64,000 bases of DNA from an uncultured Chlamydiae bacterium (GTDB taxonomy: Bacteria > Chlamydiota > Chlamydiia > Chlamydiales > SM23-39): contig CAVQKJ010000004.1 of assembly GCA_963713105.1 (NCBI GenBank), forward strand, positions 202,400 to 266,399, given 5' to 3'. The translations under genes were made by a program, and so were the position numbers. The notes below the pieces were generated by a model. That model was not told where the DNA came from. It saw only the letters and a program-made list of their open reading frames with translations, and searched no databases. Shown here piece by piece: positions 52,137 through 52,693 of this stretch (its first letter is position 1; every line of letters starts with the position of its first letter).

Positions 52137-52619
52137 ATGACGGTACTCGGATTCCCCTCTGCGGGCGAGCGAAGCGCTCGTCCCGTCTGGTCGGGGTCCG
52201 GTTGCGCCCGGTTTTCGCGAAACGCAAAAACATCGGTGCTCACTTCGTCAAAAGCCTTTGGCTTTTGCGAGAATGCCAAAGGCATTACCCCGAAGGGGCG
52301 TAGATCCGTTTCGGATCGGAGTCCATCCGAGACGAAAGCCAAATTATTGGCTTTCTTACCGTTATTTTTGAAAAAAAATGACGGTACTCGGATTCCCCCT
52401 CTGCGGGCGAGCGAAGCGCTCGTCCCGTCTGGTCGGGGTCCGGTTGCGCCCGGTTTTCGCGAAACGCAAAAACATCGGTGCTCACTTCGTCAAAAGCCTT
52501 TGGCTTTTGCGAGAATGCCAAAGGCATTACCCCGAAGGGGCGTAGATCCGTTTCGGATCGGAGTCCATCCGAGACGAAAGCCAAATTATTGGCTTTCTTA
52601 CCGTCATTTTTGAAAAAAA
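52137..52619. repeat. Two head-to-tail copies (241 + 242 bp) of a multi-hairpin unit abutting the 3' end of tRNA-Met; each unit carries a copy of the tRNA 3' end
   Basis: Units 52137..52377 and 52378..52619 are near-identical. Each starts (plus strand) TGACGGTACTCGGATTC versus the tRNA TGACGGTAGCCGGATTC. At least 7 short GC-rich stem-loops per unit. Confidence 0.95.
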
Positions 52620-52620
52620 A

Positions 52621-52693
52621 TGACGGTAGCCGGATTCGAACCAGCGACAGCGGATTATGATTCCGTTGCTCTAACCAGCTGAGCTATACCGCC
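52621..52693 (-). tRNA. tRNA with CAT anticodon, elongator type (Met, or Ile2 if lysidine-modified); CCA not encoded
   Basis: GGCGGTA-TA-GCTC-AGCTGGTTA-GAGC-A-ACGGA-ATCATAA-TCCGC-TGTC-GCTGG-TTCGAAT-CCGGC-TACCGTC-A. G1-C72 paired, C11:G24. Confidence 0.9.

Follow-up and report, generated by a model that had tools for sequence, protein, structure and literature searches.

In the tyrT-tyrV operon of Escherichia coli, the tRNA genes are followed by a tandem array of repeats, RtT, that has been known since 1978-1991 but whose function is still unexplained and which is usually seen as an enterobacterial oddity. Here we describe a tandem array of comparable layout behind a tRNA(CAU) gene of an uncultured Chlamydiae bacterium (assembly GCA_963713105.1, contig CAVQKJ010000004.1, positions 202,400 to 266,399; this stretch of 64,000 nucleotides is referred to as the window). 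The units of this array, and their homologues in related genomes and metagenome contigs, are best explained as an uncatalogued family of structured non-coding trailer modules in a clade of environmental Chlamydiae.

Our account of RtT rests on the E. coli record (NC_000913), on Rfam and on secondary citations. PMC3318445, citing Bosl and Kersten 1991, gives rttR as an RNA product of one repeat unit, and secondary sources call its mode of action unknown (PMC3318445; bioRxiv 10.1101/2024.07.17.603846). The tyrT-tyrV trailer of strain K-12 consists of 178-bp units in 3.1 copies, annotated with the small RNA rttR and a small gene, tpr. Each unit ends in AATCCTTCCCCCACCACCA, which is the last 19 nt of tRNA-Tyr and starts in the T loop, and the Rfam structure (RF00391) closes the unit through GGGGAAGGAU / AUCCUUCCCC, so that an anti-T-stem block pairs with the tRNA-end copy. 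Used as a control on E. coli, this model finds four RtT copies at 133-138 bits. A full unit is also present between two intact tRNA-Tyr genes.

A tRNA trailer may also give rise to RNA in another way. The 3' external transcribed spacer of E. coli leuZ (3'ETS-leuZ) is a functional RNA cut from a tRNA precursor trailer by the tRNA-processing machinery; it is a short, single-copy sponge for small RNAs, with no tRNA-end copy and no tandem repetition. Among short hairpin-rich DNA elements, Rickettsia palindromic elements, repetitive extragenic palindromes and bacterial interspersed mosaic elements (REP/BIME) and miniature inverted-repeat transposable elements (MITEs) are dispersed in tens to hundreds of copies.

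Results

Two tandem units, each closed by a tRNA-end copy

Tandem Repeats Finder reports an array of period 242 behind tRNA(CAU), with 2.1 copies and 98% matches (52137-52637), and alignment divides the assembled array into a 242-bp and a 241-bp unit, between which there are two differences, a substitution and the length of a G run by one base (Table 1). The original prediction, made from the letters of the window, had described a tRNA-Met followed by two near-identical 242-bp units, and but for the single missing base this description stands. Read in the tRNA sense, both units follow one plan, in which an anti-tRNA block is followed by a variable hairpin, a conserved multi-hairpin core and finally a copy of the tRNA 3' end. 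No further unit copy was found elsewhere in the window.

The closing copy, GAATCCGAGTACCGTCA, extends from the T loop (G57) to the discriminator and matches the end of the window tRNA, GAATCCGGCTACCGTCA (52621-52637), at 15/17 positions, as had been claimed; chance would give 0.15 occurrences of the tRNA-end pattern in the window, where 3 are present. The same 17 nt are identical to the true tRNA(CAU) 3' end of several related loci and contigs, which are designated here by L and X numbers (L021, L023, L034, L040, L050 and the X1 contig). The other end of the unit has a feature absent from the original prediction: TGACGGTA (52599-52606) is complementary to the acceptor 3' strand, and CTCGGAT (52567-52573) to the T-stem 3' strand of the tRNA-end copy; TGACGGTA...CTCGGAT on the 5' side is thereby the exact complement of ATCCGAG-TACCGTCA at the 3' end, giving unit-closing inverted repeats of 8 + 7 bp. 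The anti-block can pair with the copy in its own unit and also with the preceding tRNA end and trailer, and so has two mutually exclusive partners. The second of these pairings makes the perfect palindrome of Table 1, of which another copy with one mismatch lies at 52357-52386. The predicted 13-bp hairpin that includes the tRNA end is thus present, as are all the GC-rich hairpins listed with it.

Within each unit a lineage-specific insert of 78 nt forms four short hairpins, GATCCG-AAA-CGGATC, CCCC-TTC-GGGG, AATGCC-TTT-GGCATT and CAAAAGCC-AAA-GGCTTTTG. It is missing in all fetched relatives, present with one difference in a root-metagenome contig (X1) and mostly gone in a variant from an unrelated soil run (X19). 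The conserved core that follows consists, in order, of GAAGTGAGCACCGATG, hairpin H2 (GTTTTTGCG-TTT-CGCGAAAAC), CGGGCGCA, ACCGGACCCCGACCAGAC, hairpin P4 (GGGACGAGCG-CTT-CGCTCGCCC) and GCAGAGGGG. The junction of unit, tRNA-end copy and next unit is present in X19, and a soil read (X2) matches the junction between unit 2 and the flank exactly.

Homologous units in other uncultured Chlamydiae

Relatives were found by pattern scans of sequence collections and by protein look-ups. A 22-mer from the unit core led to one GTDB genome, a metagenome-assembled genome of an uncultured Chlamydiae bacterium (L001), and had no match in a scan of JGI contigs. The tRNA-end pattern gave 37 metagenome loci, 20 of them with tRNA(CAU), and tRNA-fMet lies just upstream in 18/20. 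A tblastn search with the L001 WaaA protein matched 15 of these loci, and WaaA homologues gave more loci. In all, at least ten further uncultured Chlamydiae have units at the waaA / tRNA-fMet / tRNA(CAU) locus. They stand directly behind the tRNA in L001, L010, L042, L021, L035/L039, L017, L025, L040, L044 and L033, and about 170 nt further downstream in L032/L046. The window core matches those of relatives with nhmmer E-values of 1e-27 to 1e-30.

The units fall into a long-core and a short-core class, to both of which the anti-block, H1 and the CCGGATTCGAAGTGA junction are common, and across the family unit length ranges from 110 to 240 nt and copy number from one to 3.2, with empty sites besides. 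L001 has a single compact 138-bp unit from which H1 is absent and whose anti-block is exactly complementary to the tRNA end over 21 nt, so that a perfect palindrome of 26 bp results; the equivalent hairpins of relatives have 9-26 perfect bp and loops of 2-5 nt. The spacer between tRNA end and anti-block differs from lineage to lineage and stays self-complementary (TTTTT/AAAAA, AAATT/AATTT, ATTTT/AAAAT, ATT/AAT). The unit arms likewise track the T-stem allele of the tRNA, a CCGGC tRNA being accompanied by a GCCGG anti-block and a CCGAG tRNA by CTCGG.

Arrays are found in L042 (177 bp in 3.2 copies), in L025 (1.3 copies), in L021 and L035 (where a compact unit precedes an older one, L021_B or L035_B, that has an insert of about 120 nt) and in the X19 contig (a unit, a copy and a shortened unit). 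The junctions differ, and tandem amplification arose independently in several lineages. A precise empty site is seen in L034/L050, where the tRNA runs straight into the flank that is found behind the unit in L001 and in the window, although deletion between repeats would explain this site equally well.

The original prediction had proposed looking for the tRNA linkage in relatives, and in the sequence searched it holds throughout: 19/19 nhmmer matches lie in or just behind the tRNA(CAU) trailer, and dispersed copies were absent from the 388 kb, from about 40 genomes, that were searched.

A structure maintained by compensatory changes

Across lineages the core is 76-89% identical in DNA sequence, while the WaaA proteins of the same carriers are just 48-75% identical, and unit similarity roughly tracks WaaA similarity. 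We tested covariation on an alignment of 10 sequences, using a structure that we defined ourselves (P1, H1, P2, P3/H2, P5, P4). Paired cells amount to 86.6%, as against 33-48% with the partners slid, and 19 pairs have changed on both sides, as against 9.9 +/- 2.1 in shuffles, none of which (0/500) reaches 19. Such changes affect 6/9 pairs of H1, 4/9 of P4 and 3/4 of P5; in the closing helix P2, pairing among relatives reaches 90%, and two of its pairs are altered on both sides. These comparisons of aligned units show that the helices have been kept by compensatory changes, and RNAalifold recovers the defined helices.

Folding energies agree with this. The window unit folds with z = -7.1 relative to shuffled sequence, equally on both strands; the compact unit of L035 folds exactly into the defined structure (-87.8 kcal/mol, z -7.3), its minimum free energy structure making up 25% of the ensemble, and the L001 unit has z -5.7. 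Six tRNA-proximal units have in their solid hairpins 162 Watson-Crick pairs, 6 G.U and 0 A.C, an excess of G.U over A.C that weakly favours RNA in the tRNA sense. A search with Rfam, suggested in the original prediction together with the folding, returned no family besides the two tRNAs, either with cmscan at E<=1 on 51500-53300 or at the gathering score on the whole window.

The tRNA operon and its trailer

The two tRNA genes are separated by 18 nt, with tRNA-fMet upstream, and neither encodes CCA. From its sequence tRNA(CAU) may be either the elongator Met or the Ile2 tRNA; its T stem in the window is GCTGG/CCGGC, here called GC type. The upstream gene varies by 0-1 bases across 9/9 aligned relatives. 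In front of it the block GATTTGGGA.TAAATC.CTTGTCGTG.TAGACT is kept in 9/9 aligned relatives, in which the remaining upstream 120 nt are just 51-76% identical, and the hexamers differ by one base in individual relatives (e.g., TTGGAA, TAGATT). We infer that the conserved TTGGGA-17-TAGACT is probably the promoter of the operon. No significant promoter was found inside the units, nor any terminator-like site from the tRNA through the units to the next gene. The trailer homologue stands directly 3' of the tRNA in L034/L050, L032/L046, L041 and L053, and 3' of the single unit in L001.

Table 1. Positions of the tRNA operon, the units and their parts in the window
Feature	Position	Strand	Remarks
Promoter-like element of tRNA operon	52801..52829	-	-35 TTGGGA at 52824-52829, 17-nt spacer, -10 TAGACT at 52801-52806
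Initiator-type tRNA-fMet	52712..52784	-	ARAGORN and Rfam RF00005, 66.8 bits; C1 opposite A72; GGG/CCC anticodon stem
tRNA(CAU)	52621..52693	-	ARAGORN and Rfam, 63 bits; anticodon CAT; calls at 52620/52621-52693/52694
Perfect palindrome TACCGTCATTTTT-TTTC-AAAAATGACGGTA, 13 bp	52599..52628		tRNA acceptor 3' strand and trailer joined to first anti-tRNA block
Unit 1, 242 nt	52379..52620	-	from T run after the tRNA through A of tRNA-end copy
Unit 2, 241 nt	52138..52378	-	relative to unit 1: G>A at 52363, one G fewer in G run before tRNA-end copy
Anti-tRNA block, unit 1	52567..52606	-	unit 2 counterpart 52325-52364
Variable hairpin H1, 25 nt	52574-52598	-	between TGACGGTA and CTCGGAT
Lineage-specific 78-nt insert, four short hairpins	52489..52566	-	unit 2 counterpart 52247-52324
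Conserved core, unit 1	52396..52488	-	unit 2 counterpart 52155-52246
tRNA 3'-end copies GAATCCGAGTACCGTCA, 17 nt	52379..52395 (unit 1), 52138..52154 (unit 2)	-	close both units
Ancestral tRNA trailer TACTCAGAGTCAGTCAATT, displaced behind array	52119..52137	-	homologues directly 3' of tRNA in relatives with no unit next to it

Allele mismatch and assembly quality

The T-stem allele of the window tRNA is GGC, whereas both tRNA-end copies and both anti-blocks have GAG/CTC. Compared with its counterparts in relatives this tRNA is mismatched at A27.C43, and its variable loop, of 4 nt, is one base shorter; from the type seen in L046 the tRNA differs by G27A and the shorter variable loop and by nothing else. 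The only independent contig that runs over the junction of tRNA and unit is X1, in which a tRNA with the GAG allele is joined to a unit with a single difference from that of the window (99% identical); with the GAG allele, the 15/17 match of the copy becomes 17/17. Either recombination replaced the 3' part of the tRNA in this lineage, or co-occurring strains were joined at the tRNA genes to give a mosaic contig. At 52846-56805 leuS and waaA, both intact in relatives, are split over many overlapping frames, and different open reading frames (ORFs) hold the Pfam pieces of LeuRS and of Kdo transferase, which points to poor consensus quality or to strain mixing beside the tRNA locus.

Gene context and other candidates

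No integrase or recombinase was found near the unit-bearing loci examined, by Pfam search of the ORFs of the window, L001, L017 and L021 and in the precomputed families of L039-L050. The L001 unit is followed by housekeeping genes, for acetate kinase, glycogen phosphorylase and a HAD hydrolase. Viral contigs contained neither the tRNA-end pattern nor the unit core, and plasmid DNA gave tRNA matches only. As a test of horizontal spread, unit identity roughly tracks that of WaaA, yet the T-stem allele of the window copies differs from that of their own tRNA, and in X1 a 99% identical unit stands behind the other tRNA allele.

Several related loci carry other sequences around the same tRNA. In L006 the tRNA end and a 13-nt copy of it, ATCCGGCTACCGT, enclose an islet of about 1 kb (0-1070 nt downstream of tRNA(CAU)) that codes for a zeta-toxin-like P-loop protein and contains a second, small ORF; there is no unit and no integrase. 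L041, a close relative of L001, has at 4570-6223 the ancestral trailer and then a helix-turn-helix (HTH) / ImmA-like M78 peptidase gene where the unit would be; genes of this kind are typical of mobile-element regulation modules. The array of L042 is separated by genes for a 224-aa ORF, AhpC, a glyoxalase and Cdd1 from an old, diverged unit core with a degenerate tRNA-end copy, 1.9 kb further on (6846-6951). At 1-215 (tRNA sense) L033 holds only the 3' half of the tRNA, from the anticodon loop (ATCATAATCCGCGTGTCGCTGG...), with unrelated sequence before it and a degenerate short unit after it, as might be left at the distal boundary of an insertion into the anticodon loop.

Elsewhere in the window, a few kb beyond the tRNA locus in the downstream direction, there is a homologue of GH64 beta-1,3-glucanase (47961-49175), as there is in L040 (4072-5325), so that this part of a block previously regarded as accessory is common to at least two lineages. 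An element of about 165 bp at 46319-46483, with a perfect 14-bp inverted repeat (TATACACAAATGAA / TTCATTTGTGTATA), is matched at about 85-90% by contigs from three unrelated soil or root metagenome runs in which the surrounding genes are unmatched, and looks like a small MITE-like family common to these Chlamydiae.

Other identities for the units were considered and rejected. A 158-aa plus-strand ORF (52137-52613) runs across both units, but a protein, tpr-like or other, is not indicated because this ORF has no Pfam match, the period of 242 bp is not a multiple of three, and indels of 1-2 nt and 25 nt separate the relatives. A core derived from a decayed tRNA copy is not supported, local alignment to the tRNA and its upstream sequence giving just the 17-nt end and weak patches besides. 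Nor is there support for a retron, a type III antitoxin array or integron attC sites, as downstream genes differ in each lineage and no reverse transcriptase, toxin or IntI lies nearby.

Discussion

Comparison with described systems

Like RtT, the chlamydial units stand in tandem in an operon trailer, on the strand of the tRNA genes, and those of relatives do so too; tandem units of about 180-240 bp are common to both systems. In both, the unit finishes with a tRNA 3'-end copy whose start is within the T loop, a 5' block complementary to this copy closes the unit, the interior has GC-rich hairpins, and copy number varies. There is, however, no similarity in sequence or to the covariance model; the tRNA is CAU rather than Tyr and the phylum is another one. 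The chlamydial anti-block covers the whole acceptor 3' strand and forms with the preceding tRNA end a palindrome of 9-26 bp that RtT is without, no CCA is encoded, and there is no conserved small ORF like tpr. An RNA product has been demonstrated for RtT, while the chlamydial units are known from DNA sequence. The likeness to 3'ETS-leuZ would lie in an RNA derived from a tRNA trailer, and the difference in the tandem arrangement and tRNA-end copies of the chlamydial units.

At the level of DNA, the units are reminiscent of tRNA-associated integrative elements and cis-mobilizable elements (CIMEs), in that direct repeats of a tRNA 3' end bracket an insert and both occupied and empty sites occur. 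As with such elements, there is tandem accretion at a single tRNA, at which gene islets are also found in relatives (L006, L041, L042); in contrast to them, the units have no integrase nearby, and the insert is just 110-240 bp, structured, deeply conserved and furnished with an inverted copy of the att sequence. With Rickettsia palindromic elements, REP/BIME and MITEs they have in common that they are short, non-coding and rich in hairpins, that their termini are inverted repeats and that hairpins are gained and lost as modules. They differ from the REP and MITE families in being seen behind one tRNA gene only, and in having as terminal repeats the end of that tRNA itself.

A model for the units

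Our contention is that the units form a structured RNA module of the tRNA operon, similar in kind to RtT, and that slippage between the tRNA-end copies alters their number; we put the probability of this at about one half. Among the three readings offered in the original prediction, a structured non-coding RNA derived from the tRNA trailer appears the best supported, given its conservation, covariation and position and the comparison with E. coli RtT; the step from a conserved trailer structure to a processed RNA is suggested by position and by the precedent of RtT. In this model the units and the tRNAs would be transcribed as one precursor from the conserved promoter of tRNA-fMet. The closing helix would imitate the stacked acceptor/T-stem helix of a tRNA, and the enzymes that trim tRNA ends would for that reason cut at each unit. 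Such cuts would free discrete folded RNAs of about 140-230 nt, as with RtT RNA in E. coli. The anti-block could alternatively pair with the preceding tRNA end and may in this way influence the maturation of that tRNA. Duplication, as in the window, and loss, as at the empty sites, would proceed by slippage or unequal exchange between tRNA-end copies of 17-18 nt, and the model is compatible with an origin of the first unit by site-specific insertion.

Several observations weigh against this model. The empty site of L034/L050 implies that the module is dispensable, and distal copies have decayed (L021_B, L035_B, the old copy of L042). In terminal units the tRNA-end copy has often degenerated (L001, L010, L017, L033), which looks more like a neutral scar than a required processing signal. 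The consensus fold is about as stable in sense as in antisense (-57.5 and -56.5 kcal/mol), and this leaves unsettled both the strand and whether the structure belongs to RNA or to DNA. Many stems are perfect palindromes with loops of 2-4 nt, which template switching can generate and correct in DNA, and recombination with the tRNA gene accounts as well as selection does for arms that track the T-stem allele. No RNA run containing the window unit or the L010 unit was listed.

Alternative explanations

A different view is that the units are DNA-level modules or scars: a non-autonomous, CIME-like cassette, in effect a bare attP, would be inserted at the 3' end of tRNA(CAU) by an integrase acting in trans, the array would result from successive insertions or from recombination between att sites, and the core would consist of protein-binding sites rather than RNA. 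Much about the locus has this shape. Repeats that reach from G57 to the discriminator occupy the classic sublocation for tRNA-targeting integrases, the empty site of L034/L050 has the same flank, and the zeta-toxin-like islet of L006, the HTH and ImmA-like genes directly behind the L041 tRNA, the AhpC and glyoxalase block between array and old unit in L042, the L033 tRNA half beginning at the anticodon loop and the disagreement in the window between GAG/CTC copies and anti-blocks and a GGC tRNA would all be at home at an insertion site. Set against this, the unit-bearing loci examined hold no integrase or recombinase domain, though a trans-acting enzyme could be encoded elsewhere in the genome, viral contigs lack both tRNA-end pattern and core, and unit similarity roughly follows host phylogeny. 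The 138-bp unit of L001 would, to judge from the stiffness of DNA, be very small for a circular intermediate; the spacer between tRNA end and anti-block varies from 5 to 14 bp, unlike a fixed crossover region; and compensatory changes in internal hairpins are unexpected of integrase arm sites. We therefore regard insertion in trans as unlikely. The simpler form of the idea in the original prediction, a plain integrase att scar, fits in shape but fails for want of an integrase near the unit-bearing loci examined, on the housekeeping setting of L001 and because what fills the space between the copies is a structure, conserved and covarying, that roughly tracks host phylogeny.

The units might otherwise be selfish palindromic DNA with terminal inverted repeats, related in kind to MITEs, REP or Rickettsia palindromic elements, that settled in a tRNA trailer and was amplified by slippage without a function for the host. 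The terminal inverted repeats, the near-perfect short-loop palindromes and the equal folding of both strands are what this would lead one to expect, as is the gain and loss of hairpin modules (the 78-nt insert of the window, the missing H1 of L001, the roughly 120-nt insert of L021_B and L035_B), and the window contains another small element of this build with relatives in soil metagenomes. Yet all 19 matches in the 388 kb lie at the tRNA(CAU) trailer and none elsewhere in the window, the terminal repeats derive from the 3' end of the tRNA itself and agree with its allele, and the core is conserved to nearly the level of the tRNA across deep divergence, so that we hold this account to be very improbable. 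It corresponds to the proposal in the original prediction of a REP-like cassette duplicating together with the tRNA end, of which the duplication survives, slippage explaining the arrays, and dispersal does not, as no copy was found away from the tRNA in the 388 kb. The occurrence at non-tRNA loci and the match to a known RNA family that might have spoken against a tRNA-linked module were both absent. We give as little credence to a neutral by-product, in which an old duplication of tRNA and trailer left extra tRNAs that decayed to their 3' ends and were re-duplicated by slippage, or to its variant in which the two-copy state is an assembly artefact. A full RtT unit between intact tRNA-Tyr genes in E. 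coli would suit an origin by tRNA-gene duplication, and an artefact would suit both the error-prone assembly nearby, with leuS and waaA split over frames, and units that differ by just one substitution and a homopolymer length. But identity of 76-89% and pairs changed on both sides are not expected of neutral sequence at such divergence, the core has no convincing similarity to the 5' two-thirds of the tRNA, and tandem junctions recur in independent samples and lineages. The RtT-like module is thus favoured because a scar does not account for a conserved, covarying filler without a recombinase, nor palindromic DNA for the distribution tested.

A much broader extension of the RtT-like reading may be sketched, although we think it distinctly unlikely. 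RtT-type modules would be convergent and widespread protein-less elements on tRNA genes, and the chlamydial family would reveal their mode of working; through the two exclusive pairings of the anti-block, the trailer would act as a cis switch on the maturation of tRNA(CAU), and it would be a source of CCA-tailed tRNA 'top-half' mimics dosed by copy number, and the copies would serve as landing sites for islets such as those of L006 and L042.

Implications

In practical terms, partial repeats of a tRNA 3' end behind a tRNA gene should not automatically be read as scars of genomic islands, and metagenome assemblies may fuse different strains at tRNA genes that have modules of this kind behind them. 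The Chlamydiae also offer natural variants with which the plan of these units can be tested: units of 110-240 nt, with and without H1, in one to 3.2 copies, alongside empty sites and two T-stem alleles. What the family means for RtT itself is that a non-homologous set of units with the same plan, conserved and covarying, exists in a distant phylum of obligate intracellular bacteria, which argues that the plan itself is either selected or made by a common mechanism.

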